Assembly: GCA_964618805.1 (NCBI GenBank)
Contig: CAZUBM010000013.1
Location: 1 to 54,835 of the forward strand
Length of the DNA: 54,835 bases
DNA from: an uncultured Nitrososphaerota archaeon
GTDB lineage: Archaea > Korarchaeota > Korarchaeia > Korarchaeales > Korarchaeaceae
Direction of reading: 5' to 3'
Shown: in pieces, positions 7,035 through 25,563 of the stretch
Numbering within the stretch: the stretch's first letter is position 1
How the letters are laid out: each line of letters begins with the position of its first letter
Notes under the pieces: model-generated
What the model saw: only the letters and a program-made list of their open reading frames with translations
The model's database searches: none
Told to the model about the DNA's origin: nothing
Position numbers and translations under genes: made by a program

Positions 7035-7147
7035 AATTATCCATATGTCAAGATCTCCTAACAGAGATTCCTTTTAGGTGAAAAGAAACCTCCTCTTCAC
7101 ACCATATCTTTTTTTAGATGTAGGAGCCAGTTGTTAAGGGAGTATAG

Positions 7148-8251
7148 ATGGCCAAAATAACGATATCTGTAATAAAAGCCGATATAGGGAGTTTGGCTGG
7201 GCATCATGTTGTTCCAGATCAATTGTTGGAGGTCGCGAGAACCTCATTAACGGAGGCCAAGAGAAAAAGGAATATTGTAGACTTTTACGTGACTTCAGTA
7301 GGAGACGATCTACAACTTATCATGACGCACAAGAAGGGAGAGAATTCTCCAGATATACACGGTCTTGCCTGGGAGATCTTTAAAAAAGCAACAGAAGTCG
7401 CAAAAGAGCTTGGGCTCTATGGTGCTGGCCAAGATCTCCTTTCTGATGCCTTTTCTGGTAACCTTAGGGGAATGGGACCAGGGTTTGCTGAGATAGAGAT
7501 AGAAGAAAGACCTTCAGAGCCCTTTGTCGTTTTCATGGCCGATAAAACGGAACCAGGCGCTTTCAACCTTCCAATGTTCAAGATATTTGCCGATCCATTC
7601 AATACAGCAGGTCTAGTTATTTCACCGAGGCTTCACGAAGGCTTTATCTTTGAAATTCTGGATGTCCGTGAAGGAAAAGCGGTTGAATTATCGAGTCCCG
7701 AGGAAATGTACGATATCCTTGCCCTAATAGGAACTCCTGGAAGGTATATCGTGAGGAGAGTCTATACTAAAAGGGAGAAGGAAGTTGCAGCAGCCGTCAG
7801 CACTACCAGGCTAAGCCTGATAGCCGGAAGGTATGTAGGTAAAGACGATCCGGTTGCCATTGTAAGGGCCCAAAGTAAATTCCCTGCATTAGGAGAAATC
7901 TTAGAGCCCTTTGCAATGTCCCATTTGGTTGCAGGTTGGATGAGAGGATCGCATCATGGTCCTTTGATGCCTGTCTCGGTTAAAGATGCGAGACCAAGCA
8001 GATTTGATGGACCTCCAAGGGTTGTAGGGCTAGGATTCAATGTTAAAAACGGTAAGTTGATAGGGCCAAGTGATTTGCTTGCAGATGTTTCTTTTGATAG
8101 AGCAAGAGCGATTGCAAATGAAATCGCTGACTATCTTAGAAAGCATGGTCCATTCATGCCTCACAGGCTAGGGCCTGATGAGATGGAGTATACCACACTC
8201 CCAGATGTTTTGGAAAAGCTAAAGGACAGATTCAAGAAAATTGAAGCATGA
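7148..8251 (+). CDS. fbp: Bifunctional fructose-1,6-bisphosphate aldolase/phosphatase (class V)
   Basis: SVIKADIG, GDD, LYGAGQDLL, GNLRGMGPG, DKTEPGAFN, YVGKDDP, GWMRGSH, EMEYT. Confidence 0.97.
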   Translation: MAKITISVIKADIGSLAGHHVVPDQLLEVARTSLTEAKRKRNIVDFYVTSVGDDLQLIMTHKKGENSPDIHGLAWEIFKKATEVAKELGLYGAGQDLLSDAFSGNLRGMGPGFAEIEIEERPSEPFVVFMADKTEPGAFNLPMFKIFADPFNTAGLVISPRLHEGFIFEILDVREGKAVELSSPEEMYDILALIGTPGRYIVRRVYTKREKEVAAAVSTTRLSLIAGRYVGKDDPVAIVRAQSKFPALGEILEPFAMSHLVAGWMRGSHHGPLMPVSVKDARPSRFDGPPRVVGLGFNVKNGKLIGPSDLLADVSFDRARAIANEIADYLRKHGPFMPHRLGPDEMEYTTLPDVLEKLKDRFKKIEA

Positions 8252-8328
8252 AACTCTAGAAAAACTATTAGCTACCTTCCTCACTCTTCTTTACCTCCTG
8301 ACAGGAAGGTAAGCTTGCTCGTAAAAAG

Positions 8329-10050
8329 CTAGAATTCAATTTTGAACTTTGATATATGACCTAACACATCCGAAAGAGTTCTAGCTTTTAAAACATCTGT
8401 CATGAGCCTCGTAGCTTCCTCCCTGCTTATGGACCGTATTATTTTCTTAGCCCTTGGAATTAAGGAAGGGCTCATACTAAACTCATCTAGACCCATTCCT
8501 ACAAGCAAAGGAATGGCCTTGGGGTCGGATGCCATCTCTCCGCACATTCCAACCTCTTTTCCAGCTCTATGGGCTTCATCTATTATCTTATGAATTATTC
8601 TCAGCATCGCCGGATGAAATGGATTATAAAGTCCTGAGACACTTGCATTCCCTCTATCAGCGGCCATTACGTACTGAGTTAAGTCATTTGTTCCTATACT
8701 AAAGAAATCAACTTCTTCAGCAAGGACATCGACACTTAGGGCTGATGCAGGAGTTTCAATCATAGTACCTACCTTAATCTCTTTAAATGGTATTCCTTCA
8801 GATTCTAATTCATCCATCGTTTCTTTCAACAATTCCTTAGCTCTAATGATTTCCTCTATCGTCGTAACCATCGGAAACATCACCATGAAGTTACTCTTTC
8901 TTCTAGCCCTCAAGATCGCCTTTAACTGAACCTTCATGATGCTAGGTTTGTCTAATGTAAGCCTAATACCTCTCCATCCTAAAAAGGGGTTTGCCTCCTC
9001 AGGCATCCTCATGTAAGGAAGGGGCTTATCACATCCTACGTCTAAGGTCCTTACGATGATGGGTTTATCCTCCATCAGCTCCCCTATTTTGAGGAAAATT
9101 TCAAAGAGCTCTTCTTCTGTAGGCATGCTATCCCTGTCAGTATACATGAACTCCGTTCTAAGCAAGCCTATGCCCTCAGCTCCATAACGAATGGCCTCTT
9201 TTACATCTTCTAGGTTTCCAACATTCGCAAATACTTTGAACCTTGCTCCATCTGTGGTGATAGCTGGAAGCATCGCCTCTTTCGCTAGCTCTGCAAACAA
9301 GACTTCTTCCTTTTCCTTCCTTTTCTGATATTTTGATATCACATCATCTGTGGGATTGAGCAGTACTAATCCTTCATCTCCATCTACTATAATCAGTTCT
9401 CCACTCTTCACCTTTGTTGAAAAGTCTCCAGTGCCTACAACTGCTGGAATCTTAAGTGTTCTTGCAACTATTGCAACATGAGAAGTTGGGCCTCCCTTAT
9501 CTGTCACAAAAGCAAGTACCATCCTCTTATCCAGAGCGGCTATATCGCTGGGAAGGAGTTCATCAGCTACTATAACGGATTTAACAGTGAGCTTCTCTCT
9601 CTTCCTTTCCTTACCAATAAGAAAGCTTATGACGAGTTCTTTAACATCCTTAACGTCCATGACTCTTTCTCTCATATACTCGCTCTCCATGCTCCTAAAT
9701 AGGGAAATAACACGTTCTAGCACCTTTTCAACTGCAAACTCTGCACAGACTCTTTCCGTAGAGATCATCTCCTCAACAGGTTTGATGAAAGAGGATTCGT
9801 CTTCAAGCATCATGAGATGAGCCTCGTAAATCTCTGCTTCCTTTTCTCCTACTTCTCTCCTAACTCTATCTACCAGATCTGTTAGGTATTCCTTTGCTTT
9901 TTCCAAGCTTTGGTGAAATCTTCTTATCTCAGCTTCAACAAGATCGGGAGAGATTTCTTTTTTAACAATCTCCCTTCTTTCTCTCTTGAATAAGTAAGCT
10001 CTTCCTACAGCTATCCCTGGAGATGCAGCTATCCCTCTAAACTTCTCCAC
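8329..10050 (-). CDS. ptsI: PTS enzyme I (PEP-protein phosphotransferase)
   Basis: GIAASPGIAVG, GGPTSHVAI (phospho-His), GIGLLRTEF, EANPFLGWRGIR, SIGTNDLTQY, MCGEMA; 573 aa. Confidence 0.97.
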   Translation of the reverse strand: MEKFRGIAASPGIAVGRAYLFKRERREIVKKEISPDLVEAEIRRFHQSLEKAKEYLTDLVDRVRREVGEKEAEIYEAHLMMLEDESSFIKPVEEMISTERVCAEFAVEKVLERVISLFRSMESEYMRERVMDVKDVKELVISFLIGKERKREKLTVKSVIVADELLPSDIAALDKRMVLAFVTDKGGPTSHVAIVARTLKIPAVVGTGDFSTKVKSGELIIVDGDEGLVLLNPTDDVISKYQKRKEKEEVLFAELAKEAMLPAITTDGARFKVFANVGNLEDVKEAIRYGAEGIGLLRTEFMYTDRDSMPTEEELFEIFLKIGELMEDKPIIVRTLDVGCDKPLPYMRMPEEANPFLGWRGIRLTLDKPSIMKVQLKAILRARRKSNFMVMFPMVTTIEEIIRAKELLKETMDELESEGIPFKEIKVGTMIETPASALSVDVLAEEVDFFSIGTNDLTQYVMAADRGNASVSGLYNPFHPAMLRIIHKIIDEAHRAGKEVGMCGEMASDPKAIPLLVGMGLDEFSMSPSLIPRAKKIIRSISREEATRLMTDVLKARTLSDVLGHISKFKIEF

Positions 10051-10325
10051 TACTCTTCCTCCCCAAACTTGTTTTTCACTAAAGAAACGAGCGTATTAAC
10101 AGCTTCCTCAGCATCGGGTCCTTCTGCAGTGATCGTTATGATGTGGCCGCACTCTGCTCCTAGAGATAAAATACCGAGAATACTCTTAGCATCGGCCTCA
10201 TTTCCATCTTTTTTAACTTTAATTTGAGATTTAAACTTCTTGGCAGTTTGAACAAATAGAGATGCTGGTCTAGCATGTAAGCCTACCTTGTTCAAGAGTT
10301 TTACGCTTGCTTTTACCCTTGCCAT
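10050..10325 (-). CDS. ptsH: Phosphocarrier protein HPr
   Basis: GLHARPAS (His15) and DAKSILGILSLG (Ser46); likely start ATG 10325 after AGGGG; stop overlaps the ptsI start. Confidence 0.95.
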   Translation of the reverse strand: MARVKASVKLLNKVGLHARPASLFVQTAKKFKSQIKVKKDGNEADAKSILGILSLGAECGHIITITAEGPDAEEAVNTLVSLVKNKFGEEE

Positions 10326-10521
10326 ATTTAACCCCTTAGATGCCACTGCCTGAATCTGGAATTTTCTAATTAGCATTCTGCTTTTATCTTTACCCTGGAT
10401 CGTTTTATGAGTGTAAAGTACCATAGATCATACCTTAACAAATCAATATAACATCAAATGAACCTCTGTATTATCTAAACATTATATTTAGTAAAGACTT
10501 CACGGTATAGAAGGGATAGGC

Positions 10522-11187
10522 ATGAAAGTAGAACTTTCAGCTTCTATCCTCTCAGCTGACTTCTCTAAATTAGGCGAAGAGGTGAAAAAAGTAGAGAAAG
10601 CCGGAGTGGACAGAATTCATTTCGATATAATGGATGGAAACTTTGTTCCAAACCTTAGCATGGGAGTACCTATCATAAAGTCTTTGAGAAGAGTTTCATC
10701 CATCCCATTTGATGTGCATCTTATGGTACTTTCTCCAGAGAGGTTTGCGAAGATTTTCGCTAATGCTGGAGCAGACCTTATTTATTTCCATGTGGAGTCA
10801 TGCAAAAGACCTCTTCAACTCATTTCTGATTTGAAGAGCGCTGACAAAGGCGTAGGTGTAGCCCTTAACCCCTCAACTCCGTTAGATGCAATAAGTTATC
10901 TGATAGATTATGTAGATGAAATCCTAATTATGACCGTTGAACCTGGATTTGGGGGACAGAAATTCATTAGAGGAATGCTTAGGAAAATCCACGAGCTAAG
11001 GGAGAGGATTGATGAGAGGGGGCTTTCGATTAAAATTGCTGTGGATGGTGGAATTAATAGGAGCACAGCTCCTCTAGCCATTAGCTCAGGAGCATCTGTT
11101 CTAATTTGTGGTTCTGCTATTTTTTGTGAAAAAGACATTTTTATGGCTGTAAAACAACTTAAGAACTCCTTCGTGCAAAAAATATAA
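10522..11187 (+). CDS. rpe: Ribulose-phosphate 3-epimerase (Rpe/SgcE family)
   Basis: SILSADF, HFDIMDGNFVPN, DVHLM, MTVEPGFGGQ, VDGGIN. Confidence 0.95.
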   Translation: MKVELSASILSADFSKLGEEVKKVEKAGVDRIHFDIMDGNFVPNLSMGVPIIKSLRRVSSIPFDVHLMVLSPERFAKIFANAGADLIYFHVESCKRPLQLISDLKSADKGVGVALNPSTPLDAISYLIDYVDEILIMTVEPGFGGQKFIRGMLRKIHELRERIDERGLSIKIAVDGGINRSTAPLAISSGASVLICGSAIFCEKDIFMAVKQLKNSFVQKI

Positions 11188-11221
11188 AACAAAGTCCCTT
11201 CAGCTATTTTAGGGAGATACC

Positions 11222-12250
11222 TTGGCGAAGATTGAGCAAGAAATTGAGGAAATACGCAAGGTAGAACCTATTGAACTCGAAAGATTGAGATTAGATGAGA
11301 ACAAGCTGATCAGGATGCTAAGGAAGATGATGGAGATAAGAGCATTTGAAGAAAAAGTTGAGCACTTATACATATATGAGGCAGCCTTACAAGGAGCAGC
11401 CCATCTTTACTTTGGAGAGGAAGCGATAGCGGTAGGAGTATGCTCTGCTATAGGAAATGAAGGATACATATTCAGTACACATAGAGGTCATGGGCATGCT
11501 CTTGCGATAGGAATTCCTGCGAAGGAAGTAATGGCAGAATTATTTGGAAAAGTCACAGGAGTTTGTAAGGGTCTTGGAGGCTCAATGCATGTTTGTATAG
11601 ACCCTGAGAAGAAGGCTATGTGGGCTTCTGCGATAGTTGGAAGCAGCGTCCCTATAGCCGTGGGTGCTGGGTTAGCCATCAAATACATGGGTAAAAACGA
11701 AGTTTCAGTAGCCCTCTTTAGCGATGGAGCTACAAATACTGGTGCTTGGCATGAATCCATGAACCTTGCCTCATTCTGGAAATTACCTGTGATATTTGCT
11801 TGCGAAAATAACCAGTATGCCATCTCAATGCCAGCTAGAAAATCGGTAACCTGCGGCAGAGTGGCATATAGAGCAATCAGTTATGGGATTCCAGGAATGA
11901 TAGTTGACGGAAATGATGTTCTCTCTGTGTATAAGGCAACTTTAAAGGCTAAGAATAGAGCAAAGAAGGGCGAAGGCCCCACTTTAATAGAGTTCATTAC
12001 CTACAGAATGAAAGGCCACGGCGTTTACGATAAGGCGGAATATAGACCAAAAGAAGAATCAAGAAAATGGAAAGAATTTGATCCAATATTAAGGTTTTCC
12101 AAGTACCTGATAAAGTTAGGAACTACCACAGAAGAAGATATCAAGAAAATGAAAGAAGAGATCAGAGCAGAGATAGATGATGCTGTTGAATTCTCCAAAA
12201 GAAGCGATTATCCTCCTTTTGAGTTGCTTGAAGAGGTGACATACAAATGA
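11222..12250 (+). CDS. TPP-dependent acetoin/2-oxoacid dehydrogenase E1 alpha
   Basis: HLYFGEEA, STHRGHGH, GGSMH, TPP motif SDGA...ENN, TYRMKGH. Confidence 0.9.
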   Translation: MAKIEQEIEEIRKVEPIELERLRLDENKLIRMLRKMMEIRAFEEKVEHLYIYEAALQGAAHLYFGEEAIAVGVCSAIGNEGYIFSTHRGHGHALAIGIPAKEVMAELFGKVTGVCKGLGGSMHVCIDPEKKAMWASAIVGSSVPIAVGAGLAIKYMGKNEVSVALFSDGATNTGAWHESMNLASFWKLPVIFACENNQYAISMPARKSVTCGRVAYRAISYGIPGMIVDGNDVLSVYKATLKAKNRAKKGEGPTLIEFITYRMKGHGVYDKAEYRPKEESRKWKEFDPILRFSKYLIKLGTTTEEDIKKMKEEIRAEIDDAVEFSKRSDYPPFELLEEVTYK

Positions 12251-13218
12251 GAGAAATAACATATGCTGAAGCCATAAGAGAGGCCCTTAGGCAAGAAATG
12301 CACAGAGATTCTAGAGTATTTATCCTAGGAGAGGATATAGGGGCTTATGGAGGTGCTTTTAAGGTCACTAAAGGAATGTTAGAAGAATTTGGGCCAGAAA
12401 GGGTGAGAGATACTCCAATTTCAGAAGCAGCGATAGTTGGAGCTGCGATAGGAGCTGCTCTATTAGGTTTAAGGCCAATAGCCGAGATCATGTATATGGA
12501 CTTCCTTCCAATAGGAACTGAGCAATTGGTAGTACAAGCAGCTAATATGACATTAACTTCCGGTGGTAAGTTAAAGGTTCCTATCGTTGTAAGAACCCAA
12601 TATAGTCTAGGAAGGGCTCACGCATCCCAGCATTCTGAGTTTTACCCAGTATGGTACATGAATGTACCAGGTCTAAAGGTGGCCCTACCTTCAACTCCCT
12701 ATGATGCCAAAGGGATGTTGATAAGTGCTATAAGAGATGAGAACCCTGTTCTATTCATAGAGTCTGCCCTTCTATATAGAATAAAAGGACCTGTCCCAGA
12801 GGAACCCTATGAAGTACCCTTAGGGACTGCTGACATCAAAAAAGAGGGAGACGATGTAACAATAGTAGCAGTCTCTAGAATGGTAATAGAAGCCCTCAAA
12901 GCAGCAGAAGAACTTCAGAAGGAAGGAATAAGTGTTGAAGTTGTTGATCCTAGAACATTAAATCCTCTTGACAGGGATACAATAGTTAATTCGGTTAAGA
13001 AAACTGGAAGAGCTGTAGTAGCTGCTGATGATCACAAAACTGGAGGAGTTACAGCAGAACTTGTAGCAACCATAGTAGAAGGGGCTTTTGATTATTTAGA
13101 TGCACCTATTAAGAGAATAGCATCTCCAGATATTCCTATACCATTTTCTCCTCCATTAGAAAGGAAATACATGAAGTGGAGCAAGGACATAGTAGAAGCT
13201 GTCAAAGAAATAACGTAA
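12247..13218 (+). CDS. TPP-dependent dehydrogenase E1 beta
   Basis: GEDIGAYGG, DTPISEAAIVG, AEIMYMDF, SQHS, DPRTLNPLD. Confidence 0.92.
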   Translation: MREITYAEAIREALRQEMHRDSRVFILGEDIGAYGGAFKVTKGMLEEFGPERVRDTPISEAAIVGAAIGAALLGLRPIAEIMYMDFLPIGTEQLVVQAANMTLTSGGKLKVPIVVRTQYSLGRAHASQHSEFYPVWYMNVPGLKVALPSTPYDAKGMLISAIRDENPVLFIESALLYRIKGPVPEEPYEVPLGTADIKKEGDDVTIVAVSRMVIEALKAAEELQKEGISVEVVDPRTLNPLDRDTIVNSVKKTGRAVVAADDHKTGGVTAELVATIVEGAFDYLDAPIKRIASPDIPIPFSPPLERKYMKWSKDIVEAVKEIT

Positions 13219-13230
13219 GGGTGATTATAA

Positions 13231-14328
13231 TTGAGAAAGGTTATCCTTCCAAGAATAGATCCGGGAATGGAGTCAGGAAAAATTGTTGAATGGCTGAAGA
13301 AAGAAGGAGAAGAAGTAAAAGAAGGCGAAGCTTTAGTTAGAGTTGAGGGAGAAAAGACAATATTTACTGTAGAGGCACCAGAAAGCGGCATATTAGGAAG
13401 AATACTAGCGAGAGAAGGAGAAGAAGTCCCTGTTACAGAACCCATAGCAATAATAACCTCTCCTGGGGAAGAAATAACCGAAGAGGTTATTCCAAAGGAG
13501 AGGATAAGAGCTTCTCCTGCAGCTAAGAGATTGGCGGAAAAATATGGGGTAGATCTCTCGAGAATAAAGGGAACAGGTCCTGGTGGAAGGATTATAAAAG
13601 AAGATATGCTTAGGGCTATTGAAGAGATCAAAGAGAAGAAAGCGGAGATTAAGATAAGAAAAATTATCAAAATAGAAGGAATGAGAAGAACTATAGCAAG
13701 AAGACTTTCAGAAAGTCACAGAACCATTCCTGCCGTGGCAATAGTAATGGAAGTTGATATGAGTAAAGCTCTTGACCTGAAGAGAAAGTTGAAAGAAAAA
13801 CATCAGAACGTTTCTATAACTGCTATAATTGTTAAGGCAACTGCGAAAGCATTAGAGCAAGACCTAATGTTTAACTCATCTGTAAAAGAGGATAAGATAG
13901 TAGTGTATGATGAAATAAACATTGGAGTAGCAGTAAGCCTGCCAGACGGTCTGGTTGTGCCTGTGATTAGAAATGCTAATAAGAAAACACTAATGGAGAT
14001 AAGCAGAGAAATTGAGACTCTTTCGAATAAAGCCAGAAAAGAGGGATTATCGCCTGAAGATGTAGCAGGAGGAACTTTCACAGTATCTAATCTTGGAACT
14101 AAAGATGTTGAGTTTTTCACTCCAATAATAAATCCTCCGCAGGCAGCCATACTTGGAGTAGGAACTATCTCAAGTAAGCCCATATCAATTGAAGGAAAAG
14201 TGGAGATAAGACCTATGATGTACATTTCCCTAGTCTTTGATCATAGAGTTGCAGATGGAGTTCCAGCCTCAGAATTTCTTAGAAAAATAAAGAAGAACCT
14301 AGAGAACCCACAAATCCTATTAGAGTAA
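13231..14328 (+). CDS. Dihydrolipoamide acyltransferase E2
   Basis: Lipoyl domain (VEGEKT), subunit-binding domain RASPAAKRLA..GTGPGGRI, catalytic DHRVADG. Confidence 0.92.
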   Translation: MRKVILPRIDPGMESGKIVEWLKKEGEEVKEGEALVRVEGEKTIFTVEAPESGILGRILAREGEEVPVTEPIAIITSPGEEITEEVIPKERIRASPAAKRLAEKYGVDLSRIKGTGPGGRIIKEDMLRAIEEIKEKKAEIKIRKIIKIEGMRRTIARRLSESHRTIPAVAIVMEVDMSKALDLKRKLKEKHQNVSITAIIVKATAKALEQDLMFNSSVKEDKIVVYDEINIGVAVSLPDGLVVPVIRNANKKTLMEISREIETLSNKARKEGLSPEDVAGGTFTVSNLGTKDVEFFTPIINPPQAAILGVGTISSKPISIEGKVEIRPMMYISLVFDHRVADGVPASEFLRKIKKNLENPQILLE

Positions 14329-14329
14329 A

Positions 14330-14749
14330 TTAACCTGTAAGAGAGATATGAAATCTCTTGGTTAATGGTATCCTTATTCCAGGGAGGAAGAAGAGCTTAG
14401 CCTCATAATACGCTCTAAGTATAAGATCCATATCATGAACCGGTTTTATGTCTAAGATTACACTTTGATTCCTAGAACTTCGTGCTTTAACAAATCCAAA
14501 AACGATTATGAAGTTTCCTAGGTTTTCTCCAGAATCTGAAGAGTATATACTTATCCTAGCTGAAACATAGAGGGGATAGAAACCATTGTTTTTGAACGAA
14601 AAAGTAAAATTAACCCCTCTCGCATCTTGATGAACTTCTCTTGCTTCTACTATCTGAAGATTTGAGTGCGCACTATATACAGAGGAAATCCAGATTATGA
14701 CTAAAAAAAGGATAGCTAAGAAAAAGAAAGCCTTCTTTGGAATTCTCAT
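14330..14749 (-). CDS. Hypothetical membrane-anchored protein, downstream of EIIC
   Basis: N-terminal TM followed by a beta-rich domain; 40 bp after the EIIC stop. Confidence 0.6.
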   Translation of the reverse strand: MRIPKKAFFFLAILFLVIIWISSVYSAHSNLQIVEAREVHQDARGVNFTFSFKNNGFYPLYVSARISIYSSDSGENLGNFIIVFGFVKARSSRNQSVILDIKPVHDMDLILRAYYEAKLFFLPGIRIPLTKRFHISLTG

Positions 14750-14789
14750 AATGTTTCTCCCCTAAAAAAAGAAAGAAAAGGGGGTTTTC

Positions 14790-16067
14790 TTACTTCTTAC
14801 CGAAGAGATAGTAGAAGGGAAGGAAGAGAACAAATGTTAAGGGATTCGTCCCGTCACAGATGCTTGAAATGTAAGTAGCGCCTTTGGCGGCTTCTGGTAT
14901 GGTGAAACCTGCGGCAACTGCTGCATCAGTGAAATATGGGGCTAAGAAACCTCCTATGTACATAGCCGGAATCAAAACAATCGCTCCTATTATGAAGGCA
15001 TGAACCACGTTACCTCTTACGATGGGGACGAGCATGCAGACCATGAATGGAAGGACTGCAAGATCTGCTAGTGGAAGGAACCTGTTTCCAGGTAAGATGA
15101 ATGCCCAAAGGAGGGTTACTGGTACTAACAAAAGAGCGGCAGCTATGGCCGTTGGGTGTCCTATAGCTATGGCAGAATCAAGGCCTATATACATCTCTCT
15201 GCCACCGTATCTTTCCTCCAAGATCTTCTTTCCTGCCTCGGATATTGGTACCAACCCTTCCATAAGTATAGCAACTACTTTTGGCATTAAGTACATTACG
15301 GCAGCTAAGGTAACCCCTGTCTTTAGAATTCCAGCTAAATCACTTCCTGCTGCTATAGCAAGCGCTAGACCTATGATTAAACCTAAAACCATGGGCTCCC
15401 CTAAGACACCGAACTTTTCTCTTATAGCCTCAGGATCAGCTTTTAAGTCTCTTAAAGCAGGTATAGCATCAATTACTTTCTTTATTGGGATTCCTATTGG
15501 AACATAAGCTGCAGAGAATCCATGAGGAAGGGATATTCCAGGAATGTTAAGCATTTCTTGCACTCCTTTTGCTGTCCAATCTCCAAGTTTGAATACTATG
15601 ATAGAATTAATTATGGCAGCGATAACACCTAAAGGAACACTACCTGTAGCCATTGTGACAAGGGATCCCGTAAAGGCGAAATGCCAATAATTCCAGAAAT
15701 CGATGTCAAGTGTCTTAGTTAGCTTCAGTGCTAGCATTATTATATTAACTATAAAACAGACTGGTATTGTTAATCCACCGACAATTGTCCCAAAAGCAAT
15801 AGCGGCAGCAGAGGGCCAGCCCACATCTATAACCGTGAGTTCGATTCCAGTTCTTTTAACCATTGCCTGAGCTACATCCGTCATCGTTCCCCAGAGCAGC
15901 CCTATAACTAGATTAATGCCCACAAAGCCGCATGCTATCGTCAAAGCAGCCCTAAAAGCTCTTCCCTTTGGGACTTTGAATGCAAGTGCGACGAAGAAGA
16001 GGATTATAGGTATAACAACAGTGGCTCCGAGGTTGAGGAACCATTGAATTGCTTCTACTATTCCCAT
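14790..16067 (-). CDS. PTS EIIC, galactitol (GatC/SgcC) family
   Basis: IDVGWP, TLDIDFWNYWH, IGLDSA, LPGNRFLPLADL; multi-TM; start after GGTGA. Confidence 0.93.
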   Translation of the reverse strand: MGIVEAIQWFLNLGATVVIPIILFFVALAFKVPKGRAFRAALTIACGFVGINLVIGLLWGTMTDVAQAMVKRTGIELTVIDVGWPSAAAIAFGTIVGGLTIPVCFIVNIIMLALKLTKTLDIDFWNYWHFAFTGSLVTMATGSVPLGVIAAIINSIIVFKLGDWTAKGVQEMLNIPGISLPHGFSAAYVPIGIPIKKVIDAIPALRDLKADPEAIREKFGVLGEPMVLGLIIGLALAIAAGSDLAGILKTGVTLAAVMYLMPKVVAILMEGLVPISEAGKKILEERYGGREMYIGLDSAIAIGHPTAIAAALLLVPVTLLWAFILPGNRFLPLADLAVLPFMVCMLVPIVRGNVVHAFIIGAIVLIPAMYIGGFLAPYFTDAAVAAGFTIPEAAKGATYISSICDGTNPLTFVLFLPFYYLFGKK

Positions 16068-16223
16068 ATATTTCACCTATAACAAGTGACTAGTTAACTT
16101 TAGGACTTCGTCTTTTTCTTAATAAAGCTTAGCTATTTTTCAACCAAAAAATATCGTAGAACTCTTGTCAGCCACTTCAAGCTCTACCTAAAGAAAGTTT
16201 GATCCACCACCGAATCAAAAAAG

Positions 16224-16538
16224 TCACTTCTTAACTCCAGTAATCTCGAGTATCTTATCTATAGTCTCTTTCTCTCCAATTCCTGTTAAGAATGGAACTC
16301 CATTCACTACTGGTACTCCCTTGGCAGCTCCTTCAGAGACAGGAGTAGTAGCCACGATTACATGAGGCTGAAATACTATTACTTTACCTGAAACTTCAGA
16401 TGCTTTACACTGAACGACGGTTAGGGGGACACCTAATTTCTTAAAGACCTCTTTGAGTTTGGTTGCCACAACCGTAGCGGTTGCAATAGCAGTACCACAA
16501 GCAACCAAAATCCTAATCGATTCTACAGCGCGAGCCAT
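16224..16538 (-). CDS. PTS EIIB, galactitol (GatB/SgcB) family
   Basis: ILVACGTAIATAT phospho-Cys loop; GVPFLTGIG. Confidence 0.9.
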   Translation of the reverse strand: MARAVESIRILVACGTAIATATVVATKLKEVFKKLGVPLTVVQCKASEVSGKVIVFQPHVIVATTPVSEGAAKGVPVVNGVPFLTGIGEKETIDKILEITGVKK

Positions 16539-16846
16539 AAGAATTCACCTTCCTCATTGGACTCTTAAAACATGTCGGTTAAACATAAAATAATTGCCTT
16601 ACAAAAGCAAAATATGATATTGCATGACTAACAAAACTCCTCGTCCATAAATATAACGAACTAATCTTCCTACTAAAATGATATGATGCAGCCCTTAGTT
16701 TCTGAGAAAGATAAAAAGATTGCCTTATTAAAAATCCTAATGGCAATAAATCGTTCAAGAAAGGATCACCTTTTCCTTGAGTTTATCATAACGCAATTTT
16801 GGCTTAATCCAAATCTATAAATCTTAGAAAGTAAGAAAGAAGAGAT

Positions 16847-17290
16847 ATGTCAGAACTTCCAGAGAATTTAAAATTTAAGATAGAAGCTAGATGGGATAAG
16901 AAAACTGGAGCTAATATTAGATTTGAGAGCGATAGATCTCTAATAATAGATACTCCTACTGAATTTGGTGGACGTGGAACAGCTTTATGCCCCGATGAGC
17001 TCTTCTTAACTTCTATAGCTGGATGTGTTCTCACAACATTTCTTTGGTTCACAAGAAAGAGAGGAGTTAAGATAAATGATATGCGGCTAGATGCTGAGTC
17101 TGAAATAGAATTAATTAAAGGAGCATATTCATTTAAGGCGATAAGGATTACAATTGAGATATCTGCTCCAGAGGAATATGCTGATAAGGCCAAAACGTGT
17201 TTAGATCTAGCAATTAGGTATTGTCACATATCTAGAGGCATCGAGCATTGTATTCCGATAGATGTAACTGGTAAGGTGATAGTTAGCTAG
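16847..17290 (+). CDS. OsmC/Ohr family protein
   Basis: DTPTEFGG..CPDELFLTSIAGC and RYCHIS with the conserved Cys pair. Confidence 0.88.
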   Translation: MSELPENLKFKIEARWDKKTGANIRFESDRSLIIDTPTEFGGRGTALCPDELFLTSIAGCVLTTFLWFTRKRGVKINDMRLDAESEIELIKGAYSFKAIRITIEISAPEEYADKAKTCLDLAIRYCHISRGIEHCIPIDVTGKVIVS

Positions 17291-17647
17291 CTATTTTCCA
17301 GGAGGAACTGCTTTTGCTGGAATTACGCAAATAAATGTAAGATCTTCTTCTCCTTTCTGTCTAAAAGAGTGCTTAGTATTGGGAGGTATAAATATGAAGG
17401 TCCCTGGTTTAATTTCATACTCTTTCCCATCTAATGTAACAAGGCCGCTGCCTGATAATACAACAACCCCGTGTTCCCAATCATGCGAATCTGGAGGAGA
17501 GAGACCTCCTTTTTCTATCCTAAAGAGTCTAATGGCAAAATTTAAGGATCCATGCCTAGGCGATATCAACCACTTTCTGTATACTCCAATTGCATTGCTT
17601 ACAACCTCTTCTTCTACTTTATCGATGCTCCCTATGAAAGCTTTCAT
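17291..17647 (-). CDS. Cupin domain protein
   Basis: SHDWEH..VLSGSG and IFIPPNTKHSF motifs; first metal His appears to be Asp. Confidence 0.85.
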   Translation of the reverse strand: MKAFIGSIDKVEEEVVSNAIGVYRKWLISPRHGSLNFAIRLFRIEKGGLSPPDSHDWEHGVVVLSGSGLVTLDGKEYEIKPGTFIFIPPNTKHSFRQKGEEDLTFICVIPAKAVPPGK

Positions 17648-17791
17648 AGGATAATTTTTGGAGTATACATAAAGAAAAGTTTTGATAAAGGAGTAATTTT
17701 GTTTTAGATGCAGTACATTCTCAACCTGATCTCTATCTACCGTTCTTTAGAACCTTTATAAGAATGATGCAAGCGAAGTTCTAGAAATCAA

Positions 17792-18247
17792 ATGGATGAT
17801 ATGGAGATAATAGTGGTAATGAGCCTTGAAGCGGACAGTTCGAAAGAGATAATAAAAGAGTTAGGCTCAATTCTCTTGAAGAGAGGATTTGTTAAACCCA
17901 CCTTTATCTCAGCTACAATTGAACGTGAGAAGAGCGTACCTACAGGCCTCGAATTAATGGGCGGGACAAATGTTGCTTTACCTCACGCAGGAGTAGAACA
18001 TGTAATAAAACCAGCTTTAGCTATGGCAAAATTGAGAAAAGAAGTAAAATTTAGGAAAATGGACGATCCTGATACCGAGATTCCAGTAAAATTAGTCTTC
18101 ATGCCGGCTATCAAAGATCCTCACTCTTATATAATTACCCTTCAGAAACTAGTTGATGTTTTCAAAAATCCTGAGTTGATAAGAGAGATCATGGAAAGTG
18201 ACGATCCAGAAGAAATAAGGAAATTGCTAGCATCTCACTTGGCTTAA
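17792..18247 (+). CDS. PTS EIIA, Gat/Fru/Ntr fold
   Basis: IEREKSVPTGL, VALPHA (phospho-His), VKFRKM. Confidence 0.9.
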   Translation: MDDMEIIVVMSLEADSSKEIIKELGSILLKRGFVKPTFISATIEREKSVPTGLELMGGTNVALPHAGVEHVIKPALAMAKLRKEVKFRKMDDPDTEIPVKLVFMPAIKDPHSYIITLQKLVDVFKNPELIREIMESDDPEEIRKLLASHLA

Positions 18248-18681
18248 ATCTATGAAATTTTTCTTTTTATCGGGGGAGATTGCTGAGAACGATTTTACTT
18301 ATCTTTAAGATACTCACCTGAAGATTGGGTCTACAAGCTTATTGTGGACCTTTACGGGCCCTACAAATATTTGATCTCGGAATAAATATGTAAGACTTGA
18401 TAAAAACCCAAATAACCGTTATAATCGTTTATCATTAAGCGTAGGACTATATCAATCCCAATAGTGCCTTTAGGATCTTTCTATACTGTGAAAATAAAAT
18501 AGAACCTCTATGTATCCCGATTGCTAATGCCTGTTTAATTACCTATTATACTAAGGTACTTGCCATACTACCTTGTAAGAACATTTATTCCGGTAGAAGT
18601 CTTTCTCATTTTTAAGAAAGATGTTGATGTAAAATTCTCTAAAACTCTATAATACTCGCACTTACTTTAGATAGCATTTTA

Positions 18682-18712
18682 GTATAAGGCTTTTAAGGCC
18701 AAAGCCTTATAC
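18682..18712. repeat. Perfect 12-bp inverted repeat with 7-nt spacer
   Basis: GTATAAGGCTTT-TAAGGCC-AAAGCCTTATAC. Confidence 0.85.
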
Positions 18713-18759
18713 CAGTGTTAGAAGAGGCGTCCAACTAAAAATTAAGATCAAAGTTATGG

Positions 18760-19707
18760 TTAATATACTATATTTTCAAAACCAGAAGTCAAATGAACTA
18801 TCGATGGAAGGAGCGCTTTTGATCTTTTATCTATCTCCCTTCTGTCTAATACCGATATTCCTTTGAATTTTGTTGAGAAAGAGGCAGCAGCTGCTGCAAA
18901 GGCTGATGATACCCTTAGAGTTCTACCTTCGGCTATACAGATAGATAAGACGGCCAGGAAAATATCTCCAGCCCCTACATCGTCTACAACTTTATTAGAT
19001 TTGAACGCGGGCACATAAAGGATCTCACTTCTATCTGCTACGATAGCTCCTCTTTCTCCCATCGTTACAGAGACTATCAGGGCTCCAGCATCTAATAACA
19101 TTCTTATTCCTTCTTTTAGATCGGTTGTGCCAGTGGCTGCAATGCATTCTTCCCTGCTTAAGTGCAATATATCGCACAGGGAACTCGCTTTTAAGGCATC
19201 TTCACTCTTAGAAATTGAAATTTCACCTTTAGAGCTAAATTTTCTCACAAAACCTTGCAAATCAAGGGCAATCATCCCTTTTACCATTCCTCTAATTTCT
19301 CCAACAAGCCTTAAGCTTATTTCGCCTCCTACTGGGCCTAAAAAGACTAAATCATCTTCCATTAAATCTCTGGGAATATCGTGTACGTGTAAAGCAGGTG
19401 CTGATGCTGGCCTTGAGAAAATTCTCCTGGAACCAGATATTTCGATCCTGAATCTTGTGCTAGGTCCTTTAATTCTCTTCACATGAGAGATGTCAACCTT
19501 TAGCGAAGAAAGTCTTTGGAGGAAATTCATTGGCATGTCATCTCCGACAACAGATATGACTCTGGCCTTCCAATCCATTGAAATAGCGGCCACCGAACCA
19601 TAAGCAACTGAACCACCTAGCCTCTCCCTGAGCCTTCTACCTTCATAATATATCTCATCGATTACCAAATGACCTAGTCCGGAAAATCTTTTGTTTTTAA
19701 CCTTCAT
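18760..19707 (-). CDS. PfkB family carbohydrate kinase
   Basis: GHLVID, GGSVAY, VTMGERGA, DDVGAGDIF; start ATG after GGTGA. Confidence 0.9.
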   Translation of the reverse strand: MKVKNKRFSGLGHLVIDEIYYEGRRLRERLGGSVAYGSVAAISMDWKARVISVVGDDMPMNFLQRLSSLKVDISHVKRIKGPSTRFRIEISGSRRIFSRPASAPALHVHDIPRDLMEDDLVFLGPVGGEISLRLVGEIRGMVKGMIALDLQGFVRKFSSKGEISISKSEDALKASSLCDILHLSREECIAATGTTDLKEGIRMLLDAGALIVSVTMGERGAIVADRSEILYVPAFKSNKVVDDVGAGDIFLAVLSICIAEGRTLRVSSAFAAAAASFSTKFKGISVLDRREIDKRSKALLPSIVHLTSGFENIVY

Positions 19708-19832
19708 CAAATCACCTGACAATATTATCAAGGAAGCCAAAACACATAGATCCTCAGTTTACAAATGAAGGATTACTTATGAAAGAAGTTCTTTTATTAA
19801 GAAGGGAATAGCACGTTTGATAAAAATTACTC

Positions 19833-20768
19833 TCACAGAATGTCCTTTAGGTCAGGCCATCTCCTGATAAGTTTGTTCAATGTTGGGAGAAACCTTGCGC
19901 CTTCTCCTTCGCATTTATACCCTGCGAGGGCATTTCCTAATTTACAAGCATCTAGAGGGCCAAGACCTCTGGAAATCCCTAGCAAGAAACCAGCATTAAA
20001 TGCGTCCCCAGCACCGGTCGTATCCAGGACCTTTACCTTCATGGCTGGAACTAGCCTGATCCCTTCCTCCCATACGACCAAACATCCATCCTTACCCGCT
20101 TTAACTACTAATATTTCAGCACCTAATACACTTCTAAGATTTTCAAGCTCTTTATTTCCATACCCCCGACATAAGGATTTCGCTTCCATCTCGTTTGATA
20201 AACAATAAGTTATCAGCCCGCTCAGCTTGAGAACTTTCTCCATTCCCTGAAATGCAATCCCTTCAATGTCAAGTGAGGTGGGAACTCCCGAATTCTTTGC
20301 AGTTCTAAGAATGGAAATAGCATGAGGGAACTCTTCAGGATCCATCAATGAGTAGCCAGATACATGGACAAGTGAAGCCTCAGAGGCTGCCTTTAGAACC
20401 TCCTTTGTAGCTTGAAACTTTTTGTTTGCACCTCTGCTTCCTAAGATAGTTCTTTCTCCCTCTTTATCTACGAAAATTAGCATAAAACCAGTCTTGTTAT
20501 CCTCCTTCACCTGAATTAGGCTGGAGTCAACGCCTTCCCTTTTAATCTCTTCAAGAACAAAATCTCCCCAAGGGTCTCTTCCTACAGCTCCAGCAAGTTT
20601 GACTTCTGCATTTAATCTTGCCAGAGCAACTGCGATGTTTGCGCCAACCCCACCACCACTTATCTTTACTTTTTCTGTTACAGCTATGCTCCCTCTTTTA
20701 GGATACGTCTCTCCATACATGAGAATATCAACATCTATATCCCCTAGAACTAAGAAGAACCCGCTCAG
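19833..20768 (-). CDS. PfkB family kinase (ribokinase-like), probable CTG start
   Basis: LVLGDIDVD upstream of the first ATG, GGGVGANIA, GERT, DTTGAGDAFNAG. Confidence 0.9.
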   Translation of the reverse strand: MSGFFLVLGDIDVDILMYGETYPKRGSIAVTEKVKISGGGVGANIAVALARLNAEVKLAGAVGRDPWGDFVLEEIKREGVDSSLIQVKEDNKTGFMLIFVDKEGERTILGSRGANKKFQATKEVLKAASEASLVHVSGYSLMDPEEFPHAISILRTAKNSGVPTSLDIEGIAFQGMEKVLKLSGLITYCLSNEMEAKSLCRGYGNKELENLRSVLGAEILVVKAGKDGCLVVWEEGIRLVPAMKVKVLDTTGAGDAFNAGFLLGISRGLGPLDACKLGNALAGYKCEGEGARFLPTLNKLIRRWPDLKDIL

Positions 20769-20772
20769 AAAT

Positions 20773-21594
20773 CTATTCCTCCCTTCTTATCCTTTTGACT
20801 TCTTCCATTAGCCTCTTTACTCTTTCTAGTTCTACTGGATTCTGTGTAATACCGCCTACCTTAAAATACGTGCCAACGATTGCTCCATCAGCATATTTGA
20901 AGAAGTCTCTAACGTTTGATGGGTTGACTCCACTCCCAACGAGCAGAGGCTTTCCAGGTAAGAATTCCCTAACCCTTTTAACCTTCTCAACGCTCGGAGC
21001 CTTACCTGTCATGGTTCCAGTCACTATGAGGGCATCAGCCATGTAAAAGTCAAGCCATTCAGCATGCTTCTCCAAATCTATGCCTGGGAACATGACAGCG
21101 TGCTTTTTTGTTACATCTGCGAATAGCTTTATGTCATCTGCCTGCAAGAACTTCCTCATTCTAAGCATCTTTGCACCCACACCGTGATCGAACTCTCCAG
21201 TGTCCCATACTAATGCACCAGCCATCAAACACACCCTTATGAACTTTGCTCCTGAAGCGACAGCGATGGCAAGCTCACCCCTCCATCCATTGTGTATTAT
21301 GTTCACGCCAACTGGAACTGAAGATTCTTTAACAATTTCTCTAGTTGCTACGGCCATTGCAGCTACTTCCTCTGGAGGGATATTTTCTCCGACAAAATAA
21401 GGGAGGTCCCACATGTTCTCAACAATAAGACCATCAACCCCTCCTTCCTGCAATAATCTTGCGTCCTTAAGGGCGAACTCTATTATGGAGTCAATGCTCT
21501 CCCCTTCATAAGCTACTGATCCCGGTAGAGGCGGCAAGTGTACCATACCAATGATGGCTTTTTCAACCCCGAAGAGTTCTGAAACGGACTTCAT
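20773..21594 (-). CDS. BtpA/SgcQ family TIM-barrel protein
   Basis: IIGMVHLPPLPGS, ENMWDLPY, GVN, KKHA, VTGTMTG, GSGV, IVGT; start MKSV. Confidence 0.92.
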   Translation of the reverse strand: MKSVSELFGVEKAIIGMVHLPPLPGSVAYEGESIDSIIEFALKDARLLQEGGVDGLIVENMWDLPYFVGENIPPEEVAAMAVATREIVKESSVPVGVNIIHNGWRGELAIAVASGAKFIRVCLMAGALVWDTGEFDHGVGAKMLRMRKFLQADDIKLFADVTKKHAVMFPGIDLEKHAEWLDFYMADALIVTGTMTGKAPSVEKVKRVREFLPGKPLLVGSGVNPSNVRDFFKYADGAIVGTYFKVGGITQNPVELERVKRLMEEVKRIRREE

Positions 21595-21774
21595 CTTCCT
21601 TGCGTAAAACCTACGAGCCCATTCAACTTCGAATTCCAAAGTCCAACCCCTCAGCATTCCTCAATTACAGCTGAAAAAGTTTAGGTTCTTGTCGTTCCGA
21701 TGTTTTAACGATAAGGAGCCTAATTTCGGAAATTGGACATCGGATTTTTATTAAGGATCTTTAGAGCATGGCTG

Positions 21775-22677: not shown

Positions 22678-22718
22678 CATCAGGTAAAGATTATTTCTTC
22701 GCTCATAAAAGTCGCTTG

Positions 22719-24065: not shown

Positions 24066-24077
24066 ATCTTTTAAATT

Positions 24078-25424: not shown

Positions 25425-25563
25425 CTCAGGCCACTCTGATATTTCCTCTAAAAAGCTTGTTTCTAGATGCTGCTCAAAGAGTAGCTTACATTTCTGATTT
25501 CTACATAACCTTATGATCAAAGTATTGCCTTCATTTATTCTAACACGCTATTAGATACTTTTG

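Follow-up and report, generated by a model that had tools for sequence, protein, structure and literature searches.

A Galactitol-Family Phosphotransferase System with Conserved Rpe, Cupin and E1/E2 Partners in a Hydrothermal-Vent Archaeal Lineage

Introduction

Sugar uptake through the phosphoenolpyruvate (PEP)-dependent phosphotransferase system (PTS) is a hallmark of bacteria. A system of this kind is present in the 54,835-nucleotide stretch of DNA analysed here (contig CAZUBM010000013.1 of assembly GCA_964618805.1), referred to as the window, which is contig 13 of a 2.18-Mb metagenome-assembled genome (MAG) of a hydrothermal-vent archaeon with a completeness of 93.7% and an estimated contamination of 3.4%. 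The window encodes what its domains and motifs identify as a complete PEP-dependent relay, running from EI through HPr and EIIA to EIIB, together with a permease, EIIC, of the galactitol (Gat) family. These genes are kept in one block with genes for ribulose-phosphate 3-epimerase (Rpe), a cupin, and E1alpha, E1beta and E2 proteins of the 2-oxoacid dehydrogenase type. We read the block, with a probability of about 0.55, as a bacterial-derived PTS for a pentulose- or pentitol-like small carbohydrate which would work with Rpe, the nearby BtpA-PfkB genes being a separate module and the role of E1/E2 speculative.

To our knowledge, archaeal PTSs have been studied experimentally only in haloarchaea. 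A preliminary description of the window had stated that they are known mainly from haloarchaea and Thermofilum, which is true of the literature searched, but public records already name others: PTS proteins appear in NCBI records of Korarchaeota, Bathyarchaeota, Conexivisphaerales, Odinarchaeota and Asgard MAGs. Searches of full-text literature on archaeal, Korarchaeota and Bathyarchaeota PTSs, on SgcQ/BtpA function and on the Thermoanaerobacter PTS-E1 operon returned no description of this system, and the matches for BtpA concerned mostly the unrelated Brucella BtpA. In the main texts of two Korarchaeota genomics papers (PMC12787533, PMC10667645), the words "PTS" and "phosphotransferase" do not appear. 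Outside the halophiles, an archaeal PTS is unusual as far as the literature searched shows. What is new here is the lineage-conserved partnership of a Gat-family PTS with Rpe, cupin and E1/E2, the proteins themselves having already been named publicly.

The Gat-family PTS is here a stable trait of two genera in a deep-branching vent archaeal lineage. More interesting is the repeated pairing of Gat-family PTS genes with E1/E2 genes in varied gene order, in two archaeal settings also with Rpe, and in genomes without transketolase.

Genomes and Sequence Comparisons

The genome of the window (G000) belongs to genus g1 of family f1, in which g2 is the sister genus and g3 the largest genus. G001, G002, G003 and G004 are sister species or genomes within g1, and G036 and G041 are other relatives in the phylum. 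Two types of EIIC are distinguished: type-1 is that of the window, and type-2 is an SgcC-like protein from a second locus in sister species. Profile scans with Pfam and NCBIfam covered every open reading frame (ORF) within positions 5208-24065, and the sgc and gat proteins of Escherichia coli K-12 were compared with the window by tblastn. The EIIC tree was inferred by maximum likelihood from 81 rows, and the EI N-terminal domain was counted in 32 phylum genomes at least 80% complete.

The Phosphorelay

The five PTS components are encoded as follows, with scores in bits.

8329-10050, minus strand: EI (PEP-protein phosphotransferase), 573 aa; Pfam PEP-utilisers_N, mobile and C domains; TIGR01417 at 619 against a cut-off of 341.7.
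10050-10424, minus strand: HPr, ORF of 124 aa; PF00381 at 108.8; TIGR01003 at 97.4 against 47.9.
14790-16076, minus strand: Gat-family EIIC permease; PF03611 at 284.9 over 392 of 394 model positions; TIGR00827 at 454.7, under the cut-off of 542.2.
16224-16538, minus strand: EIIB of the GatB/SgcB type; PF02302 at 42.6; NF007643 at 58.3, under the cut-off of 95.
17792-18247, plus strand: EIIA of the EIIA-2/GatA type; PF00359 at 109.3; NF007236 at 68.3, under the cut-off of 139.

EI and HPr, like the Rpe and BtpA proteins described below, exceed curated NCBIfam cut-offs. The best matches of EIIA, EIIB and EIIC are the GatA, GatB and GatC models, all at scores below the cut-off. EI contains the motif GGPTSH, and HPr contains GLHARPA together with a Ser-46-type KSILG. 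The His of ALPHAG in EIIA is aligned with the His of E. coli GatA and SgcA, and the Cys of VACGT in EIIB with the Cys of E. coli GatB and SgcB. Within these motifs lie the residues that we take to be the phospho-acceptors of the respective proteins. Translation of HPr probably begins at an internal Met near 10325, for a length of about 91 aa, because homologues in g2 match only the last ~92 residues. Against the haloarchaeal HPr model the protein scores 75.4, the cut-off being 140. Orthologues of EI share 57% identity in g2 and 73% in G002.

The preliminary description had reported EI, HPr, EIIA, EIIB, EIIC, Rpe and BtpA with intact phospho-acceptor sites, and had concluded that a non-halophilic archaeon possesses a complete galactitol-family PTS. 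All seven were recovered by Pfam and NCBIfam, the His and Cys motifs of EI, HPr, EIIA and EIIB by alignment and motif inspection, and the host comes from a hydrothermal vent. Eight further genes of the interval were absent from that list, namely E1alpha, E1beta, E2, the cupin, an OsmC-family protein, a 139-aa protein and two PfkB kinases.

The Conserved Partners of the PTS

Apart from the two PfkB kinases, these genes belong, with Rpe, to the block that accompanies the PTS.

10522-11187, plus strand: canonical ribulose-phosphate 3-epimerase, Rpe; TIGR01163 equivalog at 261.1 against 212.6; first gene of the Rpe-E1alpha-E1beta-E2 row.
11222-12250, plus strand: E1alpha, thiamine diphosphate (TPP)-dependent, of the 2-oxoacid/acetoin-dehydrogenase type; PF00676 at 285.8; TIGR03182 at 349.5, below 393.85.
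12247-13218, plus strand: E1beta; Transket_pyr and Transketolase_C domains; NF006667 at 377.8, above 321.
13231-14328, plus strand: E2 dihydrolipoyl acyltransferase; PF00364 lipoyl, PF02817 E3-binding and PF00198 catalytic domains.
14330-14749, minus strand: 139-aa protein with a hydrophobic N-terminus, membrane-anchored; no Pfam or NCBIfam match; downstream of EIIC.
16847-17290, plus strand: OsmC/Ohr-family protein; PF02566 at 60.2.
17291-17647, minus strand: small single-domain cupin, TM1459-like; Cupin_2 at 67.3; best solved relative Thermotoga TM1459.

Rpe is separated from E1alpha by 35 bp, and the later junctions of the row are overlapping or tight, the start of E1beta overlapping the end of E1alpha by 4 bases. 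E1alpha has human pyruvate dehydrogenase (PDH) E1alpha as its best relative of solved structure and contains an SDG...ENN stretch, presumably the TPP-binding motif. E2 shows the lipoyl-type GEKT and the catalytic DHRVADG motifs and scores 310.8 with the PDH equivalog, below its cut-off of 445. E1alpha likewise stays short of its PDH equivalog, and the model that E1beta exceeds is a subfamily one. No E3 dihydrolipoamide dehydrogenase was found within the window; three Pyr_redox_dim proteins, which are E3 candidates, are encoded on other contigs of G000, and an LplA-type lipoate ligase gene is present elsewhere in the genome.

The OsmC protein lies inside the g2 block, and in G002 (locus L061, 11895-12353) and G004 (L064, 5707-6147), both without type-1 EII genes, it is directly beside E2. 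Following work on Ohr/OsmC proteins, we assume that an OsmC protein in this place may be a lipoyl-dependent peroxidase using the lipoyl arm as reductant. The cupin, probably metal-binding, is 52-60% identical in g2 and has a 37-39% homologue between EIIC and E1alpha in Thermoanaerobacteraceae; it could be an isomerase. The 139-aa protein is retained after EIIC, with 63% identity in g1 and 38-42% in g2. In Thermoanaerobacter, E2 is followed by a 115-aa zinc-ribbon-like protein; its equivalence with the 139-aa protein was considered and rejected, no similarity being detectable.

Conservation in the Lineage

The gene order is conserved in the three g2 loci with enough flanking sequence: cupin, OsmC, EIIA, EIIB, EIIC, 139-aa protein, E2, E1beta, E1alpha, Rpe, HPr and EI. 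A fourth g2 locus stops at EIIC. The same twelve genes are present in the window, where the OsmC-cupin-EIIA segment is locally rearranged. Flanks were scanned for one g2 locus (L016), and there two housekeeping genes, a THUMP methyltransferase and S-adenosylmethionine synthetase, enclose the block.

EIIC-GAT proteins were detected in G000, in all four other g1 genomes, in four of the five g2 genomes and in one of the two genomes of the order's second family; none was detected in the 21 g3 genomes. The EI N-terminal domain is found in 7 of the 32 phylum genomes counted. Orthologues of E1beta of the PTS-linked type, with 79-87% identity, occur in six other g1 and g2 genomes and in none of the 21 of g3. 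This distribution and the shared gene order indicate that the PTS block is stably inherited within the two genera.

One locus of G002 (L061, contig G002:C9, 9876-11857) differs in content. In place of type-1 EIIB, EIIC and cupin it carries an EIIA-like protein of 191 aa and a protein of the LarA (lactate-racemase-type) family, the pair sitting between a PfkB kinase and OsmC. The locus appears to be a cassette-exchange hotspot.

Bacterial Origin and Archaeal Host

Among named organisms, the nearest EIICs are those of Thermoanaerobacter, Thermoanaerobacterium, Fervidicola, Thermosediminibacter and Chloroflexota, with 57-58% identity. In the tree, the six type-1 archaeal sequences form one clade (support 100), which is sister (support 100) to six metagenome proteins of 59-64% identity, one cluster of which is named Candidatus Bathyarchaeota. 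The two groups together are nested among bacteria, namely thermophilic Bacillota and Chloroflexota, and lie outside any characterized galactitol clade, a placement that the preliminary description had left to be checked. When metagenome contigs were scanned with aligned sequences of the Bathyarchaeota-type clade, no close member was found among the matches listed, the best being 50% identical. Type-2 EIIC groups with E. coli SgcC (SH-aLRT 86), a tentative placement with long branches. As both type-2 EIIC and the EIIC of G036 branch away from type-1, at least three EIIC lineages exist in the order.

The named relatives of EI are MAG proteins from Korarchaeota (57%), Odinarchaeota (50%) and Asgard archaea (47%), and its identity to thermophilic Bacillota (Thermovenabulum, Fervidicola, Tepidanaerobacter) is 47-50%. 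By these comparisons the archaeal PTS is of bacterial acquisition, most like the systems of thermophilic Bacillota and Chloroflexota.

Since the nearest homologues from cultured organisms are bacterial and the MAG has an estimated contamination of 3.4%, the PTS genes might be suspected to be bacterial contamination or a chimeric join in the metagenome bin. The window itself, however, carries archaeal markers, including a family-B DNA polymerase (PolB) whose nearest Atlas clusters are archaeal, a short XPF with a helix-hairpin-helix domain, fructose-1,6-bisphosphate (FBP) aldolase/phosphatase, aldehyde ferredoxin oxidoreductase with ferredoxin, TrmO and an archaeal-type triosephosphate isomerase (TIM). 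The G+C content is even throughout, that of the PTS block (0.37-0.42) equalling that of the rest. A Logan contig assembled independently from the probable source sample spans 6609-9705, bridging FBP aldolase/phosphatase to EI, and a second covers 10130-23000, from HPr to beyond BtpA, with zero differences. Window DNA is present in hydrothermal-vent metagenomes of two studies, and pieces from the second study's vent metagenome are 95-99% similar along the PTS region. G004 has M60 peptidase, FBP aldolase/phosphatase, E1alpha, E1beta, E2 and OsmC on one contig, and the block is also found on contigs of 42-164 kb in other archaeal MAGs. The records of relatives bear the names "Thermoproteota archaeon" and "uncultured Nitrososphaerota archaeon", and NCBI lists proteins in the clusters of the g2 EIIC and EI as Candidatus Korarchaeota archaeon. 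Because of the independent bridging contigs, the pieces from the second study and the shared contig of G004, chimerism or contamination of the PTS block is very unlikely, indeed hardly credible, and the archaeal assignment of the preliminary description survives, the block being shared by genomes of the lineage.

Within 9705-10131, which covers the N-terminus of EI and HPr, the Logan contigs of the source sample break, and short overlapping variant contigs with two to three differences are found. This pattern suggests coexisting strains that differ there, and not a join. At 5208-7034, beside FBP aldolase/phosphatase, the window encodes a 608-aa protein with a weak match (28.2 bits) to peptidase M60 (enhancin-like), 67% identical in G004. 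Searches of the window for tRNAs and for Rfam families at gathering score were negative.

Pentose Metabolism in the Family

Within family f1, strong hits to the Rpe family (PF00834) are confined to g1 and g2, and each one whose neighborhood could be seen is located at a PTS cluster. Rpe is therefore not a housekeeping gene in this family. Six genomes have the canonical form (238-250 bits), precisely those that encode a complete type-1 EIIC, and an SgcE-like epimerase (129-164 bits) accompanies the type-2 cluster. The 21 g3 genomes gave no real Rpe hit, only scores of 18-21 bits, and G000 has no further real one.

No real transketolase was detected in G000, its sole Transketolase_N match (25 bits) lying inside a second, fused E1 gene, and no phosphoketolase was found, XFP_N giving no match. 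Within the family, Transketolase_N matches of 78-90 bits are limited to two g2 genomes and genus g5. Three genes of G000 match RuBisCO_large (C33:7085-7969, C8:181-1026 and C8:11360-12187, with 290, 191 and 106 bits); a form III RuBisCO is probably among them, and the weaker ones may be RuBisCO-like proteins. The fused E1 paralogue (G000:C6:83246-85210) is a frame of about 692 aa with 47% identity to both E1alpha and E1beta; its companions in the E1alpha tree are a Bathyarchaeota protein and the E1alpha of Thermoanaerobacter.

Pairing of Gat-Family PTS and E1/E2 Genes Elsewhere

The association of PTS and E1/E2 genes is not confined to this lineage. Thermoanaerobacter sp. A7A (L023) and one Thermoanaerobacteraceae MAG (L022) have a sigma54/LevR-type activator followed by EIIA, EIIB, EIIC, cupin, E1alpha, E1beta and E2. 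No experimental work on this operon was found in the literature searched, and a Thermoanaerobacter genomics paper, in the part available, tabulates only a "galactitol" PTS.

A further arrangement is found on three near-identical metagenome contigs of 39% G+C (L086, L088 and L089; e.g., L086, 599-10084). Here EIIC and EIIB come first, followed by an opposite-strand row of phosphoribosyl pyrophosphate (PRPP) synthetase, EIIA, E1alpha, E1beta, a free-standing 82-aa lipoyl protein and Rpe, after which come HPr, EI and a free-standing E2 catalytic domain. The Atlas clusters nearest to the PRPP synthetase are archaeal, which is a lead only. These contigs represent a third lineage, probably a Thermoproteota-type archaeon. 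In an unplanned count, E1alpha/E1beta genes lay near EIIC in 5 of 80 metagenome loci among the matches listed. Three of the five are these near-identical contigs; another (L083) is a weak transketolase-like hit, and in the last (L079) the genes follow a separate regulator and were judged unrelated.

Proposed Function

In the favored reading, EII would take up and phosphorylate a small carbohydrate. Rather than galactitol, this is more likely to be a pentulose, or else a sugar or polyol converted to a pentulose 5-phosphate. The co-inherited Rpe would interconvert xylulose-5-phosphate and ribulose-5-phosphate, and could thereby link the product to ribose-5-phosphate, PRPP and a RuBisCO-type pentose route. 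We prefer a ketose or aldose substrate over a polyol, since no polyol-phosphate dehydrogenase is conserved with the block. More speculatively, E1/E2 might oxidize the pyruvate released from PEP by EI to acetyl-CoA, or it might carry out a TPP/lipoyl-dependent C2 transfer from a ketose phosphate, giving glyceraldehyde-3-phosphate and an acyl-CoA.

The second variant can be extended to a route for the cleavage of pentose phosphates by Rpe, E1alpha, E1beta and E2, without transketolase or phosphoketolase, which, like the variant itself, we consider rather unlikely. Rpe would supply xylulose-5-phosphate; E1 would take its C1-C2 unit on TPP and pass it oxidatively to the lipoyl arm of E2, and the products would be glyceraldehyde-3-phosphate and glycolyl-CoA or a related acyl-CoA. 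The available parts of two papers (PMC6335953, PMC7570522) describe a comparable conversion by QncN/QncL/QncM and NapB/NapD, in which a ketose phosphate, e.g., xylulose-5-phosphate, yields a glycolicacyl thioester. As far as these sources go, the cleavage of ketose phosphates by such proteins comes so far only from antibiotic biosynthesis (QncN/QncL, NapB/NapD). The recurrent linkage to PTS genes and the missing transketolase nevertheless make this role of E1/E2 worth testing. If E1/E2 acts on a sugar phosphate, it would constitute a new catabolic route for pentose phosphates. If the cleavage route is true, a PTS-imported C5 sugar could feed glycolysis and substrate-level ATP formation in archaea without the classical non-oxidative pentose phosphate pathway.

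Several observations weigh against the reading of a pentulose- or pentitol-type PTS pathway with E1/E2 as a partner. The conserved block contains no polyol-phosphate dehydrogenase, aldolase or sugar-phosphate kinase, so that the substrate class is one that we infer. E1alpha, E1beta and E2 look like ordinary proteins of the PDH/acetoin type, with an E3-binding domain. G002 and G004 keep E1/E2 and OsmC, and G002 also HPr and EI, without type-1 EIIB, EIIC, cupin and Rpe; the type-1 EII is therefore not a fixed companion of E1/E2. An E1beta orthologue is lacking in G036, which does carry EI, HPr and an EIIC. Among the Thermoanaerobacteraceae, E1/E2 directly follows EIIC in only two of six loci; at three others, in Thermoanaerobacterium, the genes that come next are instead a class II aldolase and a TIM-like one. 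The PTS-linked E1alpha proteins of the archaea and of Thermoanaerobacter are not sisters in the E1alpha tree, the nearest named relatives of the archaeal clade being other archaeal E1 proteins, so a co-transfer of PTS and E1/E2 is not demonstrated. G000 is, moreover, a MAG of 93.7% completeness, and genes not found in it could be merely unassembled. Finally, there was no RNA run among those listed as holding window DNA.

Some of these points would be accommodated if only the PTS and Rpe made up the sugar pathway, with E1alpha/E1beta/E2 and OsmC as an ordinary pyruvate or acetoin dehydrogenase lying by chance near EI and HPr, and with the product leaving via ribulose-5-phosphate to ribose-5-phosphate/PRPP and RuBisCO. 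The PDH-like features of E1/E2 with their E3-binding domain, the persistence of E1/E2 and OsmC in G002 and G004, an E1alpha tree without sign of co-transfer and the presence of RuBisCO homologues all agree with this explanation, which is possible though somewhat unlikely. A chance neighborhood is harder to reconcile with the position of Rpe at the head of the E1alpha-E1beta-E2 row, 35 bp from E1alpha and followed by tight or overlapping junctions, and with the confinement of this type of E1beta to g1 and g2, the genera with EI, the 21 g3 genomes having yielded none. Gat-type PTS genes are also paired with E1alpha/beta, in other gene orders, in Thermoanaerobacteraceae and on the third, probably archaeal contig type, and general metabolism in G000 could be served by its fused E1.

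Another candidate is a true galactitol/tagatose PTS, in which the neighboring PfkB proteins would be tagatose-6-phosphate kinases. The GatA, GatB and GatC models are indeed the best NCBIfam matches of the EII proteins, relatives are named "PTS galactitol transporter subunit IIC" in public records, and two PfkB kinases lie within 3 kb. But all three EII scores fall short of the Gat cut-offs (454.7 against 542.2, 58.3 against 95 and 68.3 against 139), tblastn found no homologue of GatD, GatY or GatZ in the window, the Pfam scan of 5208-24065 likewise showed no family of a galactitol-1-phosphate dehydrogenase or tagatose-bisphosphate aldolase, and EIIC is distant from the enterobacterial groups in the tree. 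The g2 loci lack PfkB genes, and those of the window stay well short of the tagatose and 1-phosphofructokinase cut-offs. With these data, galactitol as substrate is decidedly improbable. A regulatory-only (PtsN-like) phosphorelay, or one serving a dihydroxyacetone kinase, was set aside in view of the intact EIIC and EIIB; no search for DhaK/DhaL was made.

The BtpA-PfkB Module and the sgc Question

Beyond EIIA, three genes form a same-strand row.

18760-19740, minus strand: PfkB kinase; Pfam.
19833-20720, minus strand: PfkB kinase; Pfam.
20773-21657, minus strand: BtpA/SgcQ-family protein; TIGR00259 at 241.4 against 153.4.

The row is split from the PTS genes by a 512-bp gap and the divergent EIIA. 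The order BtpA-PfkB-PfkB recurs in G002, with 86%, 66% and 56% identity, and G004 shows BtpA-PfkB where a contig ends. Such pairs are also present in G036 and in G041, the latter a genome that yielded no EI. The BtpA family as a whole is present in 23 of 61 phylum genomes searched, with several paralogue types. At the g2 PTS loci neither BtpA nor PfkB turned up, two of them being covered with 8-10 kb of flank; the only BtpA of g2 is a paralogue of 42-44% identity on contigs other than that of the PTS.

The surroundings of these genes differ between genomes. In G036 (L068, G036:C14, 4820-11766), BtpA-PfkB is found with nucleoside phosphorylase, phosphogluco/pentomutase, FBP aldolase/phosphatase and TIM. 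In the window (18760-25520; 41334-42083) it lies beside two amidohydrolases of the methylthioadenosine (MTA)/5'-deoxyadenosine-deaminase type, and a gene of the purine nucleoside phosphorylase (PNP) family is 20 kb away. Because of these nucleoside phosphorylase/mutase and amidohydrolase neighborhoods, a salvage role is suggested for BtpA; together with the two PfkB kinases, it constitutes a separate module outside the PTS, probably for nucleoside or pentose-phosphate salvage. Divergent from BtpA, at 21733-22677, the window encodes an F420-dependent oxidoreductase of the luciferase-like monooxygenase (LLM) class (TIGR03619, 205.5 against 166.9). It is gone at the matching place of G002, where BtpA directly faces an amidohydrolase gene.

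The preliminary description had taken the window to hold a single archaeal sgc-type pathway, in which BtpA would be SgcQ and Rpe would be SgcE, acting with the Gat-family EII on a polyol or pentose. This was a reasonable suggestion insofar as the same Pfam families as in E. coli sgc occur within 13 kb, EIIC is 40.6% identical to SgcC and BtpA 33.8% to SgcQ (Rpe 27.8% to SgcE), and the BtpA-PfkB module adjoins the E1/E2 and EI region in G002 and G004 as well. The separate row of BtpA and PfkB behind the gap and the divergent EIIA, the whole PTS block of g2 with no BtpA or PfkB nearby, and the occurrence of BtpA-PfkB in G041 argue against it. Linkage in relatives, on which the preliminary description had laid weight, thus holds for Rpe and fails for BtpA in g2. 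The epimerase of the window, furthermore, is canonical, at 261.1 against the rpe equivalog's 212.6, and not of the SgcE type, and tblastn found no homologue of SgcX (M42 peptidase-like) or SgcR (DeoR) in the window. An sgc-type pathway in the window is therefore improbable, and this claim is not sustained.

By gene content, an archaeal sgc-like cluster is nevertheless present in the genus, at another locus. In G002 (L062, G002:C3, 7198-12672) it comprises EIIA, EIIC, an SgcE-like epimerase, an M42 homologue of SgcX, BtpA and EIIB; its EIIC is 37% identical to SgcC, its SgcX homologue (PF05343) 38% and its BtpA 44% to SgcQ. The proteins are different from those of the window, with identities of 47% for EIIC, 32% for the epimerase and 39% for BtpA. 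Shorter pieces of such a cluster are found in G001 (L065, G001:C82) and G004 (L008, G004:C190), and G003 holds BtpA and the epimerase. The cluster was not found in G000, which has a single EIIC and a single BtpA match in the genome. About 3 kb beyond the G002 cluster, past major facilitator superfamily and ATP-binding cassette permease genes, lies a RuBisCO large-subunit gene (285 bits). The expectation that the system could help to assign functions to SgcQ and SgcE is upheld in part: the sister-species cluster and the contexts of BtpA with PfkB and nucleoside phosphorylase are leads to the functions of SgcQ/BtpA and SgcE, which the genes of the window are not.

Comparison with Known Systems

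The E. coli GatABC system (TC 4.A.5) resembles that of the window in having separate EIIA, EIIB and EIIC proteins of PF00359, PF02302 and PF03611, whose active-site His and Cys align. It differs in that the window EIIs score under the Gat cut-offs and are accompanied not by GatD, GatY or GatZ but by Rpe, cupin and E1/E2. The E. coli sgc operon (sgcR, sgcE, sgcA, sgcQ, sgcC, sgcB and sgcX) shares the EIIA, EIIB, EIIC-GAT, Rpe and BtpA families within 13 kb. Identities with the window are low, however, SgcX and SgcR have no counterpart, and BtpA is in another transcription unit; the locus in G001, G002 and G004 is the better match.

Gat-family PTS operons for D-arabitol and xylitol in Listeria monocytogenes reportedly also contain Rpe and a transketolase-fold TPP enzyme. 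They are reported to differ in having polyol-phosphate dehydrogenases and a true transketolase, neither of which is in the conserved archaeal block. Haloferax volcanii is said to have acquired a bacterial-type fructose PTS, which is of the Fru family and works with 1-phosphofructokinase and a class II aldolase, and a PTS has reportedly been described in Thermofilum pendens. With these the window shares the acquisition of EI, HPr and a sugar-specific EII; unlike Haloferax, it has an EII of the Gat family, with Rpe and E1/E2 as partners.

The QncN/QncL/QncM and NapB/NapD systems, by their description in the available parts of the sources given above, combine a TPP subunit, a pyrimidine-binding and transketolase-C subunit, and lipoyl and acyltransferase domains, which corresponds to E1alpha, E1beta and E2. 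According to the same parts, these systems load an acyl carrier protein for nonribosomal peptides in actinomycetes, whereas neither an acyl carrier protein nor a nonribosomal peptide synthetase is in the archaeal block. The operon of Thermoanaerobacteraceae differs in being co-directional, with a LevR-type activator and without Rpe, OsmC, EI and HPr. It resembles the archaeal block in bringing together, in one cluster, homologues of EIIC (57% identical), cupin (37-39%), E1alpha (47%), E1beta (53%) and E2 (40%).

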